A stretch of DNA of 64,000 bases from Squalus acanthias. Its lineage: Eukaryota. The position numbers and the translations under genes were made by a program. Shown here in pieces: positions 49,900 to 64,000 of the stretch (its first letter is position 1; every line of letters begins with the position of its first letter). A model generated the notes under the pieces. The model was not told the DNA's origin. It made no database searches and saw nothing but the letters and a program-made list of their open reading frames with translations. The DNA lies in contig JASTWF010000033.1 of NCBI GenBank assembly GCA_030390025.1, positions 994,001 to 1,058,000 on the forward strand, written 5' to 3'.

Positions 49900-51343
49900 G
49901 TCTTGCACGATAACCACTGAACCAGAACTAAATAGACATCTCAATATCCCAGCCCTACACGAAAACGTCTTTGCGCCAACCCCAGACCGACTCGCAACTG
50001 AGACGGCCATTCACCGAAAACCCTGCGAACCAGATTTAATGCAGATACTCCACTGACCCGAAGCTACACCGACACACCAGTAACCCAGCAATATAGCGAC
50101 ACCAATCACCGAACCCTGCACCGTACCTCCACTAACACAGCCATATACCAAGACCCAACTGCTGAAACCCGACACCGAAACACAACTGACCCATAACTAC
50201 ACCGGTATACCTCATACCCTGTCCTGCGCTGACACACCATTCACTCAGACGCGATACCGAGACCCGACTGAAGCAGCCGTACACCGACACCCACTGACTC
50301 AGACCTACAACGAAACTCCACTGACCGAGTCCACACATACACATCCCTGACCCAGCATACCTCGAAACCACATTGAGCCATTGCTACACAGACAATACAT
50401 AGACTCTGCAATCAGCAAGACCTAGCCTGAGGCACCACTGACCCAGCCCTACACCAACAAACCACTGACACAGCCCTGACCGACACCGTAATAACACAGA
50501 CCTGTATTGACTCCCACTGACGCAGCACTAAACGGGAACACCACCGACAAAGTACAAGAGCCCACTGACACAGACCTAAAACGATAAACCACCGACCCAA
50601 TCCTAAACAGAAACCCCGAAGACACAGCCCCACACCAACACCCCAGTGACCCAGCCCCACACCCAACTGATCCAGCCCCACACCCCACTGAACCATAAAA
50701 GCACCTCACTGATCCAGCCTCACACGCCACTGACTCAGCCCCACATCCCACTGACCCAGCCCCACATCCCACTGACCCAGCCCCACACCCCAATGACCCA
50801 GCCTCACAATCCATTGATACAGACCCACACCCCACTGACCCAGCCCGACAACCCACTGACCCAGCCCCACACCCCACTGACCCAGCCCCACACCCACACT
50901 GACCCAGCCCCACACCCAGACCGACCAGGACCCACACCCCACTGACCCAGCCCCACACCCCACTGACCCAGGGCCACACCCCACTGACCCAACCCCACAC
51001 CCCTCTGACCCAGCCCCACACCACACTGACCCAGCCCCACACCCCTATGACCCAGCCCCACACCCCACTGACCCAGCCCCACACTCCACTGACCCAGCCT
51101 CGCAATCCATTGATCCAGCACTATAGCAACAGCCCTCTCTCCAAGCCCTTAACGACACCCATTGAACCAGCCCTACACAGAAACCCCACTGACACAGACC
51201 ACACATCCCACTGACACATGGCAACACCAAAGATCCACTGACCCAGACCTACACAGACACCCACTGATCCAGTTCGTACATTCCATGATACTTCCCAAAA
51301 CCGAAAACCAATGGGTCCAGCCTTACGCAGACATTTCACTGAC
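49900..51343. repeat. C/A-rich 21-bp minisatellite (CCCCACTGACCCAGCCCCACA)
   Basis: Homogeneous at ~50640-51110, degenerate on both sides. Confidence 0.9.
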
Positions 51344-52541
51344 TGTAAGGGGTATCGTAATGGGGTCAGCCTTCGCTTTCTGACACAGTGAGCGGTTCGA
51401 ATCGCTCCCACACCCCTCCGGTGCCTAGACTTTTGGCTTATTTAGGGGTTGTGAACAAAATTGCAGTAAACAGGTTCTGATGAAAGAATTTTACTTTATT
51501 AAAAGAAAAAGGTAACAAACTTGAAACACACTTATTATTTAAACACAGATTCGGGGAACACACGGTACAAGCGAGGGAAATGACAATATATCAAACAAAA
51601 CCTTATCCCTCCCAAAGATCCCACTATCTGGCTAGGTTTTTGGTTTCAGGAGATCAGGGATAATGCTCACCAACGAATCCTTGACAGGATATTAGAGTCT
51701 TTTGTTTAACAGGAGTCCGTATGGCCCTTGTTGCTGCGAGGTGTCCGATGGTCACTGAGGTAGTCGCTCTGGTTTCTTCTTGCGTGCTGGCCTTCTTCCA
51801 CGTGGCTTGTGGTAGGTTTTGCTGGAGCAGGGAGAGAGCTGTGTCCGCGTCGTCAGCCAGTCCGAAAGAGAGAGAAATTATGGCACAGGCTCTCAAATTA
51901 TACTGCTTCTTTTTCGCGCCCAAAAAACCCTTACTAAAACGAATTCCTTTTGATTATAAATGAGCCGTGCTTAGTCCAATTGTCTAGTTTTTGGCGAGCT
52001 TGCCAGTTCCGATGGTTTTTGCTTAGTGTTAAACATGACTTGCTCGTTTTCCGATTTAAACACAGCCTTATCTACGCGCCAAATCTCCACCCTATTGTCC
52101 TAGGTCTGTTGGCGGGCTTTTAAATCTGTTATGTGGATACCTGGTTGATTGTTTTTTTTGATGGGATAATGGCTATGAAACTGTGTCATCGACGTTTTAT
52201 TGCCATTGAATCGTTTTTAGATTTCCAGCATCTTGTTTGCCCCTGGGGATCCATTTTTGAATGTGTTTGTGAGTTTTTGCTTTGTCTCAAACAATTCCCA
52301 GACAGCTTGATCTGTTCACTGCCCGGCCACGCCCCTCGTAGCTTGTGTCTTTGAAAAGGTGTCTCTCCCAACAGTAAGATTCAAAAACATCAATTTCCTC
52401 AGGTTTTTGTTCCCTGATCTTTAGGTTTTTACATCAAATCACTTCACGTAGACCCCATCATCCCAAGTTTGTATGAAAAGTCCAAAAATCACTCCCTTTA
52501 GGGCTCTGTCCGAGTTTCTGGGGTATTTGGCGAAGCCTACA
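51344..52541 (-). repeat. 3' LTR (~1198 bp)
   Basis: Minus strand TGTAGG...CCCCTTACA; homologous to 58806-59927; AATAAA at 51495-51500 (minus). Confidence 0.92.
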
Positions 52542-52552
52542 TCCCCCACTTT
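52542..52552 (-). promoter_or_regulatory. Polypurine tract
   Basis: AAAGTGGGGGA directly precedes the TG of the 3' LTR on the minus strand. Confidence 0.85.
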
Positions 52553-52824: not shown

Positions 52825-55175
52825 TCAAGGTTCGATCCATCCCTGGCCATAGCCTTTATTTTGATGCACTTCCCACGTCCCTTCGTGTCTGGAGCGGAGC
52901 TCCCCGTCCCTTCCCCTGCACTTTGTACACAGCAGGTAGAGAACTATCCCGAGCTGGCAGACCACCAAAAGATGGGAAGCCATCCTGATCCAGGACGGTA
53001 CCGCTATATTCTCGAAAATATCCCACCAGAGTGGAACTACTATATCCAAAATCTCAGCGCCTATTTCAACTGTTTTCTGTTCCAGGGTGTAGAAATGTTT
53101 TTGTGAAATCTCTACAGCTTTAAGTAGGATGGTAAGATGTTCGGGTAGAGGGGGAATTTTATATCCAAAGTAAGTCACATACTTTTGCAGGTTGGTGATG
53201 TTTTCTGTTACAGTGAAGTGAACAGTGGAGGATTCAGGAATAGGGACCATCCGTTCCTGGGCCACTTGAACTTCTGCCTCGGGTTTAAAGCAGAAACTGC
53301 TGTCACTTACCGGACACCAGAAGTGTCCATGCTGGTAGTGGGACGCCCCTGTGGTGAAACAATATGTCCCACCCACCTATATATGCTACCTGTGGGGAAA
53401 AATGGCCGTGTGCCATCACCTCCATGGTACAATTGATAGGTCGTGCGCCAGCAGCTTTAAACCCGCACTGTGGTTTGGAATTGGCGTTCAAGTGCTGGGG
53501 ACACAGTATTATGTGTGAACCCCGGCTCCGGCACCCGGAGAGGTCAGTACCTGTCATGGCGTGCTCCCACTTTATGACATAAGGTGGCACCGCTGTAAAA
53601 CGGATGTGTGCACCCCCTTGAACGACTCCAATGTTCTCCACCCTGTATACCGGTAAGGGTCGGGCTGTCCCACTCATGATCGGTATTCTCACTACTGTCC
53701 CATGATAGTGTCATTTGAACGCCCACAATCTATTGGGACAGGGTAGGCTTCAGAGGCTAGACGAAATTGGCATGGGCTCAGCGAATTACTAAACGGGTGG
53801 AGGGCTGCAAGGTGCTTGTTGCTGATCCAGGAGGGGACTACACCTTGCTTTAAATCCTCAAGGTTGCTATGGCCCTCGCCCAGCAACCACGCCCCGTACA
53901 GCACACACACCTCATTCTGTGCAGCCTGATCCGATGCATTCCTTTCCTCCCGTATGAGTGCATTTACTGTTTTGGCATGCCTTTCCAATTCTGCAATGAT
54001 TTCCTTTAAATGAACCGTCATAGCTTGGTTCTCATGTACCTCTGAGCCTACCGCTGAGTTCTCATCCTTCAGGATCTTTCTTAACTGTGTTTTTAAACCA
54101 TTTATCTGTGTCTGTAATTCCATGTCATCCAGGCTAACTATTACAGAGGACCCTGTACTAAAGGCAGTGAAGACATCATATCATTCCAGGCTCCCCTTCT
54201 TTGTCTACCCGTGCCCATATGGTTCTCAGGGTGTATTCTTATAGCTCTACTTTGTCTATATTGGCAAAATCAAATTTGTAAAATTTCCTAAACATTTCTT
54301 TTAGCAGGGCCTGGTACAGCTGCTCCGGCTCCTTAGGACACCACTCAGGTAAGTATTAAGTTTTAATATTACTGAAGCTACTGCATAGTGTACCCCCTGG
54401 TATAGTACCTTTTCGGTTGGTACTAGGACTAACCCATTCCCTGGTCCCTTGGTGGTGGTAGGGCACTTTTCTCCAGGGTTTTCGGTACCCGGGTCGTGGG
54501 TAGGGGCATTCGGGTGTGTGCCACGAGTTCAGTGGCATTAACTGGGACCGGAATGTGTGGGACCACGCACCCATGCAGGCTAGAATCCCACCCTATCCCC
54601 TGCCTGGCATCCTGCCATTGGCTGGAGAAGATGATGGATACCCCTGTGGGACAGGCTTTCTCTGATCCCCACATACAAACATAGACTCCGTGTTCCGACC
54701 CCCACCACTTATCCCAACAAACACTAACTCCTCCTTGGGTCCCTGTGATTGTCCGGTGGGTGTCGTTCCCTAATCTTTCCCAATCGGCTGTATGGTCCCC
54801 TGCGTCCCTGCTCAGCTTCCTGAGCCACCACCGCCTATTCAGGGGAATTCGTCCCTTACAGGTAAGGCACACACGCTTCCCCTCGGTGACACTGACCCCT
54901 GTGGCAACGACCTGTATTCTGGGGCATGGGAGGGAGGCCTCCCCGTACATGAACTCGGGCTGGTTGAAGTATTTAGTAGAGTTGGACCCCAGCCACCCTG
55001 GCCACCTTCCCTCGTGGAAGTAGATGGCGAGCTCCTCCACTCCCCGCTCGCCACCCCCTGCGGTGACGACTGGTGCTCTCACTCCTGAGCACCCATAGAT
55101 GTGGGAGTCCTCCACGTCACCTCGGTCACCGATGCTCACCCCTACCAGGGCGAGCAGGAACAGAAACCTTGTCAT
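52825..55175 (-). pseudogene. env: env: signal peptide, Ig-like domain, then class-I F-type fusion protein (several frameshifts/stops)
   Basis: MTRFLFLLALVGVSIG; Ig motif; GLVLVPTEKVLYQGVHYAVASVILKL..EWCPKEPEQLYQALL; RQRR (54206-54195) then GAWNDVFTAFSTGSSVIVSL; heptad ELQTQINGLKTQLRKIL; Cys-rich DLSGC..LCP..QCG..NCTM..YCF..WCP..FCF; TM ending VVCQLGIVLYLLC. Confidence 0.85.
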
Positions 55176-55377: not shown

Positions 55378-58300
55378 TTAAATCCGGTTTAGTCTCTGCC
55401 TTATGTGGCCTCTGGATGGCTTGTACACCTGGGTGTAGTGCGGCCTGTACCGCCGGACCCAGACGGCCTTCCTCAAAACCGCTGGGGGTATCTTATCATC
55501 CCAGCTGCGTCCTGTGCTGCAGCACACTACCCCCTTTGGTGTGGCTGCAGCGCCCTCGTTCATATCTGTGAGCTCCTCCCAGCCTGAGGCTGCAGGCGGG
55601 GGACCCTTCTCTCTCTTTCTTCTCCCAGTACTACCTCTCCTGTGAAACCCTCACTGTTGGAGGCTGTAGGCTGGGAATCCCCAACTTTAGAACGCTCCCT
55701 GCTCTTGGGCGCTCTTAATCGGGTTGTAACCCTCTTTGGGTGGGACCCTCTAAACAGATACACCTGTGGCCACAGTAGCCTTTGCTGTGGTGTGCGGGGA
55801 AACCTTCCAAGGGCTCTGGCCACTGGGGGTGTGCTTGAGTCCCACATAATCGGTGGAGTGACCTCTCCTGTGAGACAACACACTGTCCCTCCCGCTGCAG
55901 CTTGTGCGTCTCCCACAGCTGCGGCTGGCTGCGGATTTCTAACTTGCAGCCCATCCAGCTTTGCCGGCTGTTCCAATTTAGGTTTAAACAGTTTGCATTG
56001 GTTGATGTGAAACCACTTTGTACGGCGAGGTATCTTTATGGCATAGACCATGGGGCTTGCCTTGTCTATAATGTTGTAGGGCCCCATGCACAATGGTTCG
56101 AAAATCCCTACCCGGGCAAAATTTCTCACCATGACCTGATCTCCAACCTTCCACTCGTGGTGCTTGCGGGGTTCCAGCAGCAATCGGTAACCCCGATGCT
56201 GTTTTCCCATGTTACTCGCAGCCTGCCAGTGGACCTGTTTAAGGTGGTCCAACAGATTCCTGACGAATCTGTCCCGGTTCACCTCCCTGAGCTGCCCTTC
56301 CGTGAGCACCGGGGCTAGCACATGGGTGGGGGCCGCGTAACCCTGCCAGTCATGAGCTGGTGTGGGGAATACCCTGTGCTTTTTGAATGGCTGGCCCGGA
56401 TCCCCATTAGGACCAACGGTAAGGCTTCTACCCACTTTTTGGGCGAGTCTCCCATCTCCTTTCGCAGCCTTTCTTTGATGGTACAGTTTAAACGCTCCAC
56501 AATCCCTGATGACTGTGGGTTGTGGGCGACGTGCCATTTCCCTTCTATGCCGAGTACCCTGAGGGTCTCTTGCATGACCTGCCCAGTAAAGTGACTCACC
56601 TGGTCTGACTCCACATACTGTGGAAGCCCCCATCGTGAGAACACGTCCCTGACCAGGATCCTGGCTGTACCCAAAGCGGTAGCTGTTCGACATTTAAAAG
56701 CTTCCACCCTATTTGAGAACACATCCACCAGGACTAGGCATTATTTGCAGCCTCCCTGAGCGGTGGGTAGCGGCCCGATGTAGTCGACCTGAATCGACTG
56801 CCATGGTCCCTCTACCCTCCTGATGTGTCCCATAGATACCTTCTTTTTCTGGGGGTCAGGGTTGTTGGCAGCACAAACCAGACAGCCTGCACAGAACTCG
56901 CGGACATCCTCCCTCAGTCCTGGCCACCATCCTGCCTGTTCCAACCGCTGCCAGGTGGTTTCAGGCCCGGGCTGCCCTGCTCCTGGTCCCGCATGGGCCA
57001 GTTGGATGAATTCCCTTCGGTGCTGCTGCGGCACTACCCAATGTTCCCCCCTGAACAGCATTCCTTCTTTGTGGGTGATGGCTGCTGCGCCGTATGGGCC
57101 CTCGACCTTCTCCCCTTTAGCCAGCGTTTCCAGGACAGTTTTTAGGATGGGATCCTGTGCCTGGGCCGTCTTTAGGTCCGGGGTCAATGCTACCCCTGCA
57201 CTCCCTTGGGTCCCTCTTCTACCTCTGATTGCTGCTACCGGTTTTGATCCATATGGATCCCAAAACGTGCCTGGACTGGCGCCCTCTTTGGCCAGCATGT
57301 CGGCTTGGTGATTGCCCTCTGCGCGGGGCTCTACCTTGGAATGGGCCTTCACCTTTTGGTTGTAGACCCTACCTTCCTCCACTACTGCCCTCATGATTTT
57401 CTCCAACAGAGTCTTGATGGCCAGGGGTCTCCCATCAGCGGAGGTGTATCCACGACGGGACCAGATGGCCAGGTACTCTTTACACGAATTGCACGTGAAC
57501 ATGCTGTCGGAGCAAATCGTGTATGGGGTAGGGAATTCCTCGGGGTGTGTGACTACATACACCACCGCAGAAAGTTCAGCCTGCTGGGCACTCATGGTGC
57601 TGGGAAGCTTTATTTCCAGAGCAATGCCTGCCTCTGGGTCATAAATCCCACACCCTGTGAGTCGTTTTCCAGCTGATACTGTGCTCGAAACGTCCACATA
57701 GATTTCGCGGCCTGTGGGGTGTATCCCAGCTCGCAAACCAATGTTGACTTCCCATTCCCCTTCAACGGAACACCGGTGGGCTGTCCCTGAGTAAATCATG
57801 TTAGCTGCGAGCTTTGGCTCGCAGAGACCTTTTACCCTCAGATCCATTTGTGAGAGAAGCAGGGTCCATCGAGCAATGCGGGCACTGCTCACTGTCCCAT
57901 CTTTAATTCTCCCATCCAAGAGCATCTGGGTGGGCGTGTGGTGAGTGAGGAGTGTGATGCGAGAGGTGCCTGTGAAGATCAATGATCTTTTCACAGCCCA
58001 GTGAGTGGCTAGGAGGTGCCTCTCACAGTTGGAGTAGCTCCACTCCACATCAGTGGGTATTCTGGAGGAATAAACAACTGGTCTCAGCTTGCCATGCCTC
58101 TCTTGGAGCAGTACTGCACTCAGATTGTCCCCACTGGCTGCTACCTCCAGAGAAAAACTCTTCCCCTCCATCAATGTCCCCTAGAGCCGGAGCGGTCTGC
58201 AGATCTCTCTTGAGTTTCAGAAAGGCAGCCTCACAACCCTCATCCCAAACCCACTCCACTCCCTTTTGTAGGAGTCGGAGCAGAGGGGCTGCTGTGGCTG

Positions 58301-58750
58301 CGTAATCCTCAATGAAATCTCTGCAGTATGCAGTTAGCCCTAGAAAAGACATTACTCCTGTAACTGTGTTGGGGGCTGGTAACTCCTGAACTGCTTCCCT
58401 TCTAGCTTTGTCAATGGCCCTCTCCCCTGCTCGCACAGCCAGTCCCAGGAATTTGACTTCCTGCCGGCCAATCTGTGCCTTCTTGGGGTTTACTTTAAAG
58501 CCCTCTTGCCTGAGCAGTTCCAGCAGTTCTGCCAGAAGGGGGCCATGTTCCTCTCCCTCATCGGTAAAGAGGAGTAGGTCGTCCACATACTGGACCAGCT
58601 GATGGGGCCTGCTGAAGCCCTTCAAGCAATTCGCCATACATTGGTGAAAAATGCTTTGGCTGTTGTGGAAACCCTGGGGCAGACAGTTCCATGTGTACTG
58701 TTGGCCTTTAAATGTAAAGGCGAACTTGTACTGATCCTCTCTCCTCAAAA
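55378..58750 (-). pseudogene. pol: pol: 5'-truncated RT, tether, RNase H, integrase with GPY/F motif and a long C-terminal tail
   Basis: FAFTF..LPQGFHNS..QYVDDLLL; SAVLLQ..RPVVYSSR..RIARW; IYVD..SAQQAEL..SDS..KAH..GN..AD; CLVC, QVDYIGPLP, ESDQ, SSGIVERLN, GPYNI. Frameshifts near 58165 and 56330, stop at 56741. Confidence 0.92.
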
Positions 58751-58787
58751 CCAGCAGTTACTGCTTCACAACCCTTTCGCCAAAGTA

Positions 58788-58802
58788 CTGCTGCGGTCGC
58801 CA
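58788..58802 (-). promoter_or_regulatory. Primer binding site (possibly tRNA-Ser type)
   Basis: TGGCGACCGCAGCAG lies 3 nt inside the 5' LTR end (..TTACA TAA TGG). Confidence 0.7.
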
Positions 58803-58805
58803 TTA

Positions 58806-59927
58806 TGTAAGGGGTATCTTAAGTGAGCGGTTCGAATCGACCAACACCCCTCCGGTTCCTAGACTTTGGGCTTATTTAGAAGTTGTGAACAAAATTGCAG
58901 TAAACAGGTTCTGATGAAAGAATTTTACTTTATTAAAAGAAAAAGGTAACAAACTTGAAACACACTTATTATTTAAACACAGATTCGGGGAACACACGGT
59001 ACAAGCGAGGGAAATGACAATATATCAAACAAAACCTTATCCCTCCCAAAGATCCCACTATCTGGCTAGGTTTTTGGTTTCAGGAGATCAGGGATAATGC
59101 TCACCAACGAATCCTTGACAGGATCTTAGAGTCTTTTTGTTTAAAAGGACTCCGGAAGGCCCTTATGGTTTCTTCTTGTGTGCTGGTCTTCTTCCTGATG
59201 GCTTGTGGTAAGTTTTGCTGGAGCAGGGAGAGAGCTGTGTCCGCGTCGCCAGTCAGTCCAAAGAGAGAGATTATGGCACAGGCTTTCAAATTATACTGTT
59301 TCTTTTTTGCGCTCAAAAACCCCTTTCTAAGACGAATTCCTTTTTGAATGTAAATGAACCTTGCTTCGTCCAATTGTCCAGTCCCTGGCGGGCTTGCCAG
59401 CTCCGATGGTTTTTGCTTAGTGTTAATCGCTTTCCGATTTAAACACCGCCTTATCTACGTGCCAAATTTTCACTCCACTCTATTGTCCTTCTGTTGGCGG
59501 CCTTTTAAATCGGTTCTCTGGATACCTGGTTGATTGATTTTTTTGGATGGGATAATGGCTATGAAACTGTGTGATCAAAGTTGTATTGTCATTGAATCGG
59601 TTTTAGATTACCAGCATCTTGTTTGCCCCTGGGAATCCATATTTGAATGTGTTTGTGAGTTTTGCATTGACTCAAACAATTCAAAGATAGCTTGATCCGT
59701 TCACTGACCGGCCACGCCCCTCGCAGCTTGTCTGTGAAAAAAAACGTCTCTCCCAACAATAAGATTTAAAAAAAATCAGTTTCCTCAGGTTTTCTTCTTG
59801 TGATCTTTAGGTTTTTACATCAAATCACTTCACTGAGGTCCCATCATCCAAAGTTTGTATGAAAAGTCCAAAAATCACTCCCATTAGGGCTCTGTTCGAG
59901 TTTCTGGGGGATTTTGCGATGCCTACA
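58806..59927 (-). repeat. 5' LTR (~1122 bp)
   Basis: Homologous to 51344-52541, with TG..CA ends. Confidence 0.92.
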
Positions 59928-62900
59928 AGAGTCTGAGAGGGACAGTGTATGAGAGAGAGTCTGAGAGAGACAGTGTGTGAGAGAGTGAGACTGAGAGACA
60001 GTGTGAGAGAGTCTGAGAGGGACAGTGTATGAGAGAGACAGTGTGTGAGAGAGTGAGACTGAGAGACAGTGTGAGAGAGTGAGTCTGAGAGAGACAGTGT
60101 GTGAGAGAGTGAGTCTGAGAGAGAGAGTGTGTGAGAGAGAGTAGGTCTGAGGGAGAAAGTGTGTGAGAAAGTGACTCTGAGACAGACAGTGTATGAGAGA
60201 GAGTCTGAGAGAGACAGTGTGTGAGAAAGTGAGTCTGAGAGAAAGTGCATGAGAGAGTGAGTCTGAGAGAGACAGTGTGTGAGAGTGTGATTCTGAGAGA
60301 GACAGTGCGGGAGAGAGTGTGTCTGAGAGAGACAGTGCGTGAGAGAGTGAGTCTGAGAGAGACAGTGTGCGAGAGTGAGTCTGAGAGAGACAGTGTGAGA
60401 GAGTGAGTGAGAGAGACAGTGTGTGAGAGAGTGAGTCTGAGAGACAGTGTGTGAGAGAGTGAGTCTCATAGAGACTGTGAGAGATTGAGTCTCTGAGAGA
60501 TGTGTGTGAGAGAGTGAGTCTGAGAGAGAGTGTGTGAGAGAGTGAGTCTGAGAGACAATGTGTGAGAGAGTGAGTCTGAGAGAGACAGCGCGTGAGAGAG
60601 TGAGTCTGAGAGAGACAGTGTGTGAGAGAGTCTGAGAGAGACAGTGTGTGAGAGAGTGAGTCTGAGAGAGACAGTGTGTGAGAGAGTGAGTCTGAGAGAG
60701 ACAGTGTGTGAGAGAGTGAGTCTGAGAGAGACAGTGTTTGAGAGAGTGTCTGAGATAGACAGTGTGTGAGAGAGAGAGTCTGAGAGAGACATTGAGTGAG
60801 AGAGAGAGTCTGAGAGAGACAGTGTCTGAGAGAATGAGTCTGAGAGAAAGTGTGTGAGAGCGTGAGTGAGTCAGAGAGACAGTGTGTGAGAGAGAGAGTC
60901 CGAGAGAGTCAGCGTGTGAGAGAGTGAGTCTGAGAGAGACAGTCTGAGAGAGAGTGAGTCTAAGAGAGACAGTGTGTGAGAGAGTGAGTCTGAGAGAGAC
61001 AGTGTGTGAGAGAGTGAGTCAGAGAGACACAGTGTGTGAGAGAGTGAGTCTGAGAGAGACTGTGTGTGAGAGTGTGAGTCTGAGAGAGACAGTGTGAGAG
61101 AGAGAGTGAGTCTGAGCGAGACAGTGTGTGAGAAAGTGAGTCTGAGAGGGACAGTGTGTGAGAGAGTGAGTCTGAGAGAGATAGTGTGAGAGAGAGAGTG
61201 AGTCTGAGAGAGACAGTGTGTGAGAGATTGAGTCTGAGAGAGTGTGCTTGAGAGAGTGAGTCTGAGAGTGACAGTTTGTGAGAGAGTGAGTCTGAGAGAG
61301 ACAGTGTGTGAGAGTGAGTCTGAGAGAGACAGTGTGTGAGGGAGTGAGTCTGAGAGAGTGAGTGTGAGAGAGTGAGTGTGTGAGAGAGAGTGAGTCTGCG
61401 AGAGGCAGTGTGTGAGAGAGTGAGTCTGAGAGAGAGAGTGTGTGAGAGAGTGAGTCTGAGAGACAGTGCGTGAGAGAGTGAGTCTGAGAGAGACAGTGTG
61501 TGAGAGAGTCTGAGAGAGACAGTGTGTGAGAGAGTGAGTCTGAGAGTGACAGTGTGTGAGAGAGTGAGTCTGAGAGAGACAGTGTCTGAGAGAGTGAGTC
61601 TGAGAGAGAGTGTGTGAGAGAGAGTGAGTCTGAGAGAGACAGTGTGTGAGAGAGAGAGAGACTGAGAGAGACAGTGTGTGAGAGAGTGAGTCTGAGAGAG
61701 ACAGTCTGAGAGAGAGTGAGTCTGAGAGTGTGTGAGAGAGTGAGTTTTAGAGAGACGGTGTGTGAGAGAGCGAGTCTGAGAGAGATAGTGTATGAGAGAG
61801 TGAGTCTGAGAGAGTCGGTGTGTGAGAGAGTGAGTCTGAGAGAGTGTGTGAGACAGTGAGTTTGAGGGAGATCGTGTGTGAGAGAGTGAGTCTAAGAGAG
61901 ACAGTGTGTGAGAGAGTGAGTCTGCGAGAGACAGTGTGTGAGAGCGTGAGTCTGAGAGAGACAGTGAGTGAGAAAGTGAGTCTGAGAGAGACATATTGTG
62001 AGAGAGTGAGTCTGAGAACGACAGTGTGTGAGAGTGAGTCTGAGAGAATATGTGAGAGAGTGAGTCTGAGAGAGACAGTGTGTGAGAGTGAGTCTGAGAG
62101 AGAGACAGTGTGTGAGAGAGTGAGTCTGAGAGAGACAGCGTGTGAGAGAGTGAGTCTGCGAGAGACAGTGTGTGAGAGCGTGAGTCTGAGACTGACGTTG
62201 TGTGTGAGAGAGAGAGTCTGAGAGAGACAGTGTGTGAGAGACTGAGTCTGAGAGAGACAGTGTGTGAGAGAGTGAGTCTGAGAGAGTGAGTGAGTGAGAG
62301 AGTGAGTCTGAGAGAGACAGTGTGTGAGAGACTGAGTCTGAGAGAGACAGTGTGTGAGAGAGTGAGTCTGAGAGAGTGAGTGAGTGAGAGAGTGAGTCTG
62401 AGAGAGACAGTGTGTGAGCGAGTGAGTCTGAGAGTGTGTGAGAGAGTGAGTTTAGAGAGACGGTGTGTGAGAGAGCGAGTCTGAGAGAGACAGTGTATGA
62501 GAGAGTGAGTCTGAGAGAGACGGTGTGTGAGAGAGTGAGTCTGAGAGAGTGTGTGAGACAGTGAGTTTGAGAGAGACAGTGTGTGAGAGAGTGAGTCTGA
62601 GAGAAAGTGCATGAGAGAGTGAGTCTGAGAGAGACAGTGTGTGAGAGTGTGATTCTGAGAGAGACAGTGCGGGAGAGAGTGTGTCTGAGAGAGACAGTGC
62701 GTGAGAGAGTGAGTCTGAGAGAGACAGTGTGCGAGAGTGAGTCTGAGAGAGACAGTGTGAGAGAGTGAGTGAGAGAGACAGTGTGTGAGAGAGTGAGTCT
62801 GAGAGACAGTGTGTGAGAGAGTGAGTCTCATAGAGACTGTGAGAGATTGAGTCTCTGAGAGATGTGTGTGAGAGAGTGAGTCTGAGAGAGAGTGTGTGAG

Positions 62901-64000
62901 AGAGTGAGTCTGAGAGACAATGTGTGAGAGAGTGAGTCTGAGAGAGACAGCGCGTGAGAGAGTGAGTCTGAGAGAGACAGTGTGTGAGAGAGTCTGAGAG
63001 AGACAGTGTGTGAGAGAGTGAGTCTGAGAGAGACAGTGTGTGAGAGAGTGAGTCTGAGAGAGACAGTGTGTGAGAGAGTGAGTCTGAGAGAGACAGTGTT
63101 TGAGAGAGTGTCTGAGATAGACAGTGTGTGAGAGAGAGAGTCTGAGAGAGACATTGTGTGAGAGAGAGAGTCTGAGAGAGACAGTGTCTGAGAGAATGAG
63201 TCTGAGAGAAAGTGTGTGAGAGCGTGAGTGAGTCAGAGAGATAGTGTGTGAGAGAGAGAGTCCGAGAGAGACAGCGTGTGAGAGAGTGAGTCTGAGAGAG
63301 ACAGTCTGAGAGAGAGTGAGTCTAAGAGAGACAGTGTGGGAGAGAGGGAGTCTGAGAGAGACAGTGTGTGAGAGAGTGAGTCTGAGAGAGACAGTGTGTG
63401 AGAGAGTGAGTCTGAGAGACACAGTGTGTGAGAGAGTGAGTCTGAGAGAGACTGTGTGAGAGAGTGAGTCTGAGAGAGACAGTGTGAGAGAGAGAGTGAG
63501 TCTGAGCGAGACAGTGTGTGTGATAGTGAGTCTGAGAGGGACAGTGTGTGAGAGAGTGAGTCTGAGAGAGATAGTGTGAGAGAGAGAGTGAGTCTGAGAG
63601 AGACAGTGTGTGAGAGATTGAGTCTGAGAGAGTGTGCTTGAGAGAGTGAGTCTGAGAGTGACAGTTTGTGAGAGAGTGAGTCTGAGAGAGACAGTGTGTG
63701 AGAGTGAGTCTGAGAGAGACAGTGTGTGAGGGAGTGAGTCTGAGAGAGTGAGTGTGAGAGAGTGAGTGTGTGAGAGAGAGTGAGTCTGCGAGAGGCAGTG
63801 TGTGAGAGAGTGAGTCTGAGAGAGAGAGTGTGTGAGAGAGTGAGTCTGAGAGACAGTGCGTGAGAGAGTGAGTCTGAGAGAGACAGTGTGTGAGAGAGTC
63901 TGAGAGAGACAGTGTGTGAGAGAGTGAGTCTGAGAGTGACAGTGTGTGAGAGAGTGAGTCTGAGAGAGACAGTGTCTGAGAGAATGAGTCTGAGAGAGAG
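59928..64000. repeat. GA-rich ~30-bp satellite (GAGAGAGTGAGTCTGAGAGAGACAGTGTGT) with a ~2.36-kb higher-order duplication
   Basis: Seen directly. ORFs 60466..60792 and 62828..63154 are identical (offset 2362). Confidence 0.95.

Follow-up and report, generated by a model that had tools for sequence, protein, structure and literature searches.

The subject of this study is a 64,000-nucleotide (nt) stretch of the Squalus acanthias genome (contig JASTWF010000033.1 of assembly GCA_030390025.1, positions 994,001 to 1,058,000 of the forward strand), referred to below as the window and numbered from its first letter, and, within it, the envelope gene (env) of an endogenous retrovirus. A minus-strand open reading frame (ORF) at 54429-55175 is the 5' part of this env and not a separate gene, and it comes from a decayed provirus whose endogenous retrovirus family is very abundant. 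The ORF encodes an additional N-terminal domain, called the head below, that is placed between the signal peptide and the part of Env resembling the F2 subunit of viral fusion (F) proteins. The head is a conserved part of Env under purifying selection and is absent from the published lokiretrovirus Env proteins available for comparison. The overall explanation that we favor, with moderate confidence, is that of an F-type Env with a built-in receptor-binding head, the fold of which is probably immunoglobulin (Ig)-like.

The ORF extends from a methionine codon at 55175 to a stop at 54429-54431 and encodes 248 residues; a second in-frame methionine is located upstream, at approximately 55211. All of the sequence features quoted in the original prediction are present: the signal peptide, MTRFLFLLALVGVSIG (55128..55175, signal-peptide-like by eye), followed by VSVTEGKRVCLTC at residues 94-106, the WW pair at 116-117, ten residues past C106, EHGVYVC at 161-167, and a short Pro/Thr-rich stretch, MPLPTTRVPKT, at residues ~221-231. 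A tblastn comparison of an intact sibling Env, P0001, with the window placed the whole env at 52831..55175 of the minus strand, on which all of its parts lie, with about five frame changes private to this copy (near 54470, 54340, 54170, 53700 and 53330) and several stops. The head (ORF residues 17-222; 54510..55127), delimited in an alignment of 17 sequences, is intact in the window copy and contains a putative Ig-like core (residues 85-185; 54621..54923) that was located by the Pfam family Ig_3, a profile search of the PDB, a pattern test and predicted strands. The Pro/Thr-rich linker (residues ~223-245; 54441..54509) contains the first frame break, near 54470, and is followed by the F2-like segment, starting with GPGNGLVLVPTEKVLYQGVHY (54207..54440; further frame change near 54340), the furin-type cleavage site RQRR (54195..54206) and the F1-like subunit (52831..54194), all three placed by the tblastn alignment. 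The order within the F1-like subunit is fusion-peptide region, heptad repeat A, Cys-rich body, heptad repeat B, aromatic-rich stretch, transmembrane segment (at about 52927-52983) and short tail; RQRR or a similar basic site is kept in siblings and relatives.

The original prediction had placed the F2-like continuation in another frame and had offered two readings of this arrangement, namely, a single env ORF broken by a frameshift or a separate secreted Ig-like accessory protein. The continuation was indeed found in a different frame, from ~54492 downward, by tblastn with the intact sibling protein, and the first of the two readings was borne out by the other copies in the genome. Thousands of related copies are present in the 3.7-Gb genome, the sibling search of which gave 6346 first-look candidates, 150 of them scored, at 86-93% identity. 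One sibling, L021, encodes P0001 as a single uninterrupted 784-residue Env in the order signal peptide, N-terminal domain, PLPTTQVPKTLEEKCPTSTK linker, GPGNGLVLVPTEKVLYQGVHY..., RQRR, long heptad-repeat region, Cys-rich body, second heptad region, aromatic-rich stretch, transmembrane segment and short tail, so that the head and the F-like part are in frame in natural intact siblings. Open frames of 808 codons without an internal stop were found in seven of the 150 scored sibling matches. The window env, the DNA of which is 95% identical to that of sibling L040 over 3229 nt, has its first break in the linker, where one base is missing in this copy alone.

Four diverged subfamilies of this genome carry the head, and it recurs in gene models of sharks and skates, the sequences concerned being models or fragments from Pristiophorus, Rhinoraja and further sources. 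For the window type, identity to the window domain was 86-93% over the 248-residue ORF, or 89-94% over the mature domain (L002-L021); it was 81% in L033, 63-66% in L022-L032 and 55-58% in L034-L039. The domain contains 8 Cys (ORF residues 29, 84, 103, 106, 153, 167, 175 and 203), 11 Trp and three N-x-S/T sites (residues 65, 137 and 213), and all eight Cys, together with several Trp-rich motifs, are conserved among the 17 natural sequences aligned. The ratio of nonsynonymous to synonymous divergence (dN/dS), estimated by the Nei-Gojobori method for L021 versus L033, was 0.20 for the head (dS 0.41) and 0.13 for the putative Ig core, compared to 0.14 for F2 and 0.15 for the F1 ectodomain, and was relaxed in the linker (0.4-0.5; 0.53 for this pair) relative to the flanking regions. 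In more distant pairs, dS was saturated and dN was 0.30 for the head versus 0.12 for F1, a ratio of ~2.5. Occurrence in four diverged subfamilies under purifying selection disposes of a later insertion, which the original prediction had named as a possible outcome.

Two observations can be added here. The predicted mature N-terminus (DRGDVEDS) carries an RGD at ORF residues 18-20 (55116-55124, minus strand), which P0050 and the L022-type subfamily share; RGG replaces it in the L033 type, RGR or RGL in the L035 and L036 types, and RGR in the skate sequences, so that only RG is conserved. Additionally, the annotated shark proteins P0002, P0004, P0011 and P0038, named as ZFP2-like, Niban 1-like, cadherin-related 5-like and an fbxo15 isoform, combine host genes with pieces of this env in chimeric form, and these gene models are probably annotation artefacts of endogenous retrovirus insertions.

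The Ig-like character of the head is suggested, in the first place, by the hallmark spacing of its residues. With the hallmark defined as a C-strand Trp 10-14 residues after the B-strand Cys and a D/E-x-G-x-Y-x-C motif 55-70 residues after the first Cys, the domain shows C103/C106, W116/W117 and E161-HGVYV-C167, and the arrangement is kept in every full-length aligned member; the putative strands are B (VCLTC), C (RWWLRK), F (GVYVC) and G (VSIIF). When the mature domain was shuffled 20000 times with its composition preserved, the test pattern C-x(8,16)-W-x(35,75)-[DE]xGxYxC turned up in 11 of the shuffled sequences, which is only a rough guide, since the pattern was chosen after the sequence had been seen. 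Among the six-frame ORFs of at least 100 amino acids in the window (17914 residues), the pattern matched once, in this ORF only.

Database comparisons pointed in the same direction. Ig_3 (PF13927) was the sole recurring Pfam family, matching 10 of the 17 members at E up to 1, with a best E of 0.0011, E 0.036 for the window and E 0.014 for P0001 (profile positions 2-74 of 78); four other families appeared once each among the 17. When the 17 sequences were combined into a profile and compared with every sequence in the PDB, nothing but the CRTAM Ig V domain was matched (E 0.14-0.26); the aligned part runs from strand A' through G and keeps the B-strand Cys and the YxC motif in register. The AlphaFold head is all-beta, with strands at the expected A-G positions, in a model of low confidence. 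In a search of the ESM Atlas, the head scored 0.80-0.82, a level that shuffled sequences often reach, and Ig families in 6 of the 10 rows listed are to be taken as a lead only. The core of the head (residues ~85-185) is likely to fold as an Ig-like beta-sandwich.

Distant Env relatives, namely, P0013 (Chiloscyllium), P0019 (Pelodytes), P0043 (Mantella), and P0034 and P0012 (Mustelus), align with P0001 from the linker onward only and possess their own N-terminal regions of 140-185 residues. In PDB searches, the N-terminus of P0013 matched an antibody heavy-chain variable domain (VH) at E 0.0057, with all 47 listed matches being of the Ig V type, and that of P0019 matched a VH at E 0.0051, with 26 of 26 matches being VH. 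P0034 gave a match to Pfam V-set (PF07686) at E 0.045, and eight of its ten weak PDB matches were proteins of the Ig superfamily (IgSF); moreover, the automatic UniRef name of P0013 is 'Ig-like domain-containing protein'. A MAFFT alignment of four of the distant N-termini was poor and was not used. In the two frog relatives, P0019 and P0043, a basic REKR/RNKR site lies upstream of the N-terminal region here called Ig-like, preceded in P0019 by a hydrophobic, signal-anchor-like stretch, which hints at an extra cleavage in these Envs.

The remainder of the protein has a class I architecture, as read from P0001 together with its relatives: signal peptide, small N-terminal subunit, furin site, fusion peptide, heptad repeats A and B, Cys-rich body and transmembrane segment. 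In the ESM Atlas, residues 236-740 of P0001 were nearest to the PF00523 and Baculo_F clusters (0.91, 200 of 256 features), with the top match in the PF00523 cluster and all ten of the best family-bearing matches sharing the same family or clan, a result that serves as a lead and not as proof. By these sequence-derived features, the Env is classified as F-type, loki-like in its layout. Word-indexed homologue searches returned only elasmobranch env fragments, with no named F protein and no host Ig gene.

A considerable number of results weigh against this reading, and they concern the fold of the head as well as the nature of the body. No Ig family exceeded its Pfam cut-off in the head, Ig_3 reaching 15-17 bits against a cut-off of 30, and 7 of the 17 members lacked an Ig_3 match even at E 1. 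When the window core was searched against the PDB as a single sequence, the matches had E 0.13 or worse, and three of the six were Ig-type. The AlphaFold heads had a predicted local distance difference test score (pLDDT) of 32.7 with 9 sequences and 41.3 with 17 sequences, and predicted template modelling scores of 0.30 and 0.45. Among the relatives, P0003, P0012, P0013, P0019, P0043 and P0024 had no Ig match in Pfam, the N-terminus of P0043 gave nothing Ig-like in the PDB search, and hhalign comparison of the head alignment with six distant N-termini gave probabilities of 1% or less, so the Ig signal of the distant relatives may not transfer to the present domain. Besides, the PDB is rich in antibodies, so lists consisting entirely of Ig matches do not constitute independent evidence. 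As to the body, PF00523 was absent from P0001 in HMMER searches at E up to 10, from 8 relatives at E up to 1 and from 28 at E up to 10; a six-frame genome search for PF00523 found none, in a stricter first look in which the controls gave no signal; and the PDB profile search with the Env family found no F protein. The grounds for calling the body F-type are its architecture and its language-model features.

Foldseek comparison of the better head model with the PDB gave a best E of 0.15 and TM-scores of 0.22 or less, which is in the noise range though Ig domains dominate, and a wide VIA-align search with the same model gave nothing significant; as both AlphaFold models are of low confidence, these fold searches are uninformative. 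Of the Ig domain originally predicted, the motif spacing has stood up (11 of 20000 shuffles), and the fold is a probable one, with every Pfam match below cut-off and models of low confidence (pLDDT 33 and 41).

According to the mechanism that we propose, the intact Env would be a single class I fusion glycoprotein of ~784 residues, consisting of a signal peptide, a disulfide-rich glycosylated head of ~205 residues, the Pro/Thr linker, the F2-like part, RQRR and the F1-like part with its transmembrane segment. Furin cleavage at RQRR would leave the head on the F2-like subunit, in the manner of the surface subunit (SU) with its transmembrane subunit in other retroviruses, where it would serve to bind the receptor. 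Such a module would be needed because only one glycoprotein gene is present in the element and a separate attachment protein is lacking. Moreover, the N-terminal region differs completely between lineages and is constrained within them, as is usual for receptor-binding domains, and the role is inferred from both points; variation between lineages in this very region would be expected of a host-range determinant. On these considerations, receptor binding by the head seems somewhat more probable than any function of another kind.

The alternatives differ in which part of this proposal they replace. A domain with the same position and role could have a non-Ig, disulfide-rich beta fold, such as another sandwich or a new Trp-rich fold, with the Ig motif being fortuitous. 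None of the Ig matches reaches threshold, confidence in the AlphaFold models is low, and the richness in Trp (11) and Cys (8) is unusual; ~68 conserved residues precede the putative core and ~37 follow it, and, to our knowledge, the conserved RWPGWLGSNST, RWWWLRKLS and VCWDKWW are not typical of Ig domains. Such a fold nevertheless appears fairly unlikely, given that Ig_3 alone recurs in Pfam (10 of 17, as against four others once each), that the only PDB profile matches are to an Ig V domain aligned end to end, that two distant relatives carry VH-like N-termini at the same place, and that the Cys-Trp-Cys spacing fits an Ig domain. Alternatively, the head could be Ig-like without binding a receptor, serving as a glycan shield or as a cap that holds the prefusion body until it is triggered. 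The three N-glycosylation sites and the faster protein-level evolution of the head relative to F1 would suit this function, and some F proteins, e.g., those of pneumoviruses, can attach without a dedicated head. We consider it unlikely, because the dN/dS of 0.13 in the core and the conservation of the whole domain fit specific binding better than a passive shield, and because the compared lokiretrovirus Envs, as far as the available consensus proteins go, manage without any such cap.

Two further alternatives concern the origin of the head and the status of the window ORF. A recent capture of a host IgSF exon by this retrovirus lineage would account for an Ig-like signature lying exactly between the signal peptide and the F2 start, a position that is empty in the published lokiretrovirus Envs to the extent that they were available, and heads that do not align between lineages would fit repeated captures. 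At the same time, a phmmer search of the whole P0001 Env against 1.84 billion representatives gave 48 matches, all of them env-like or chimeric, with no host Ig protein among them, so the captured host domain of the original prediction found no relative outside endogenous retroviruses; and since the head is shared by dS-saturated subfamilies and by shark and skate sequences, any capture must be old. Recent capture is therefore quite unlikely. The 248-residue ORF might also be a gene in its own right, encoding a secreted head-only accessory protein or a host-co-opted receptor-blocking decoy, for which truncated-env restriction factors provide a precedent. The ORF is intact through the signal peptide and head, with the stop 12 codons past the frame break, and a 272-codon frame is stop-free in 11 of the 150 scored rows (two further rows have an internal stop). 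In the alignment, however, the break columns differ among the window, L002 and L008/L015 within one ~35-nt stretch; gaps at different columns imply independent decay events, and the ORFs are equally long only because each shifted frame runs into one and the same stop. The many 272-codon frames could have pointed to a sublineage that inherited one frameshift, a possibility rejected on account of these independent breaks. The prominence of these frames and the top rank of such copies are due to query bias, the query having carried the shifted tail; intact siblings read through; and the four additional frame breaks in the window env, together with the absence of gag and protease, give the appearance of ordinary decay. 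A head-only gene is thus highly improbable, and the accessory-protein variant of the original prediction can be set aside.

The preferred reading of an F-type Env with a built-in head can be extended to a group of viruses. It is conceivable, and we put it forward tentatively, that there is a previously undescribed clade of F-type Envs in sharks, skates and frogs, and that an Ig V-like domain was inserted in it between the signal peptide and F2, perhaps taken long ago from an IgSF exon of a host. Equally tentative is the second part of this scenario, in which the domain serves the clade as a built-in Ig-type receptor-binding head and the clade, of which nearly identical copies with open gag, pol and env are present, is very young in this genome.

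The element to which the window env belongs is a decayed provirus consisting of long terminal repeats (LTRs), partial pol and broken env, all on the minus strand. The 5' LTR (58806..59927) starts with TGTAGG, ends with CCCCTTACA, adjoins a satellite array from 59928 and was recognized by self-BLAST; the same LTR is found upstream of pol in sibling L040. The 3' LTR (51344..52541) was delimited by self-BLAST, comparison with L040 and inspection of its termini, and is immediately preceded by a polypurine tract, AAAGTGGGGGA (52542..52552, by sequence inspection). The LTRs are ~1.1-1.2 kb each, and self-BLAST paired 58822-59927 with 51387-52541 at 87-96% identity. This divergence is uneven, with 96% identity over 344 nt and 87% over ~780 nt, and the L040 pol gave no megablast-level match to the window pol despite the 95% env identity; together, these observations suggest recombination or gene conversion between subfamilies. 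Sequence inspection showed a leader remnant with a primer-binding-site-like TGG... stretch at 58758..58805. About 60 nt past the 5' LTR, the leader joins the middle of the reverse transcriptase (RT) region directly, by a junction that is found also in L040, and the RT ORF begins at profile position 85 of 205 of RVT_1 in Pfam; consequently, gag, the protease and the N-terminal part of RT are missing from the window copy. The pol remnant (55560..58757), located with Pfam and the ORF list, lies in several frames and comprises the C-terminal part of RT, the tether (RT_RNaseH), RNase H, and the zinc domain, core and C-terminal part of the integrase (RVT_1 3.2e-22, RNase_H 6.5e-19, RT_RNaseH 1.1e-17, Integrase_H2C2 1.3e-16). 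Tandem repeats are present on both flanks of the provirus (59928-64000 and 50638-51099): next to the 5' LTR, starting from the very base that adjoins it, is a satellite of >4 kb whose unit is 30 nt long (a 14-nt period is also readable), and a 21-nt repeat array lies ~250 nt past the 3' LTR.

A more complete picture of the family is provided by a sister-subfamily provirus (L042+L043), which has LTRs of 1667 nt with 99.28% identity and open frames for gag (627), pol (1498) and env (854). Its pol reads protease-RT-tether-RNase H-integrase, with Pfam matches to RVP, RVT_1, RT_RNaseH, RNase_H, Integrase_H2C2 and rve; thus, a pol of this order, gag, env and LTRs, the components of a retrovirus-type element, are all found through this provirus. 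The LTR identity and the open gag, pol and env indicate that the family is of the retrovirus type and that parts of it are very young. Open env frames of 854 codons were found in 46 of the 150 scored rows for the sister subfamily, ~90 of which tie in score. In the L042+L043 provirus, gag and pol lie in one frame and are split by one stop.

Comparison with the lokiretroviruses (Wang and Han, Mol Biol Evol 2020/21, PMC7947760) is the most instructive. According to the parts of this source that were accessible, their Env matches PF00523 at E 2.2e-7, and PGPxxG(I/V)(V/M)L...PGLLIT begins only a few residues past the signal peptide in 20 of the 21 consensus proteins compared, the hosts of these 20 being teleosts, lampreys and frogs (Xla and Rca); 23 such proteins exist, and the twenty-first of those compared, Lch, is a fragment. 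The present Env shares with them the signal peptide, short F2-like part, basic cleavage site, fusion peptide, coiled coil and transmembrane segment, and by eye its F2 start, GPGNGLVLVPTEK..., resembles PGPxxG(I/V)(V/M)L, the region after the cleavage site being similar as well; pol has the same dual RNase H arrangement. In contrast to the lokiretrovirus proteins, F2 does not directly follow the signal peptide: its start, GPGNGLVL..., comes after ~225 residues of head and linker, and there is no PF00523 match. The head is accordingly absent from 20 of these 21 published proteins, the last being the fragment, in line with the original prediction, whose author knew of no such domain described in elements of this kind. 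Note that the only chondrichthyan row found in the accessible supplement of PMC7947760, 'Orectolobiformes Chondrichthyes 3 0', records three screened genomes and no lokiretrovirus-positive one, and that the accessible main text names five host classes, none cartilaginous. The present data would widen the known range of F-type env to cartilaginous fishes.

The accessible text of PMC7947760, PMC9040795, bioRxiv 10.1101/2023.10.26.564294 and PMC13709493 does not mention an Ig-like or extra N-terminal domain, and no literature joining lokiretroviruses with immunoglobulin, or describing an Ig-like head on such an Env, was found in a search that left most subscription journals uncovered. The consulted portions of the lokiretrovirus literature do not address how a retrovirus whose only env is F-type finds its receptor. 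If the proposal is true, a conserved head fused to F2 would answer this question simply and would be a natural example of a fusion machine that carries an Ig-type module for targeting. Insect errantiviruses and baculoviruses have an F-type Env that resembles the present one in being a single F-like glycoprotein serving a reverse-transcribing element, and Baculo_F is among the nearest Atlas clusters. Unlike the present element, errantiviruses are invertebrate Ty3/gypsy elements, and the available text of the paper on their F-type Env (PMC13524379 / bioRxiv 10.1101/2023.10.26.564294) mentions no immunoglobulin or Ig-like N-terminal domain.

The F proteins of paramyxoviruses and pneumoviruses (PF00523) are likewise class I proteins, cleaved by furin into small N-terminal and large C-terminal subunits, with two heptad repeats and a transmembrane segment, although the present Env shows no HMMER-level similarity to them. 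These F proteins usually work with a separate attachment protein (HN, H or G), those of the paramyxovirus type normally lack a receptor-binding domain, and we know of no N-terminal head in paramyxovirus or pneumovirus F. The receptor-binding domain of the gammaretroviral SU is N-terminal, binds the receptor, has an Ig-like beta-sandwich core and is followed by a Pro-rich linker. No sequence similarity to this domain was detected in any search of the present analysis. The head shares with it the place at the N-terminus of the surface subunit, ahead of a Pro-rich linker, and differs from it in its partner, as the gammaretroviral domain sits on a gamma-type transmembrane subunit and the present head on an F-type body.

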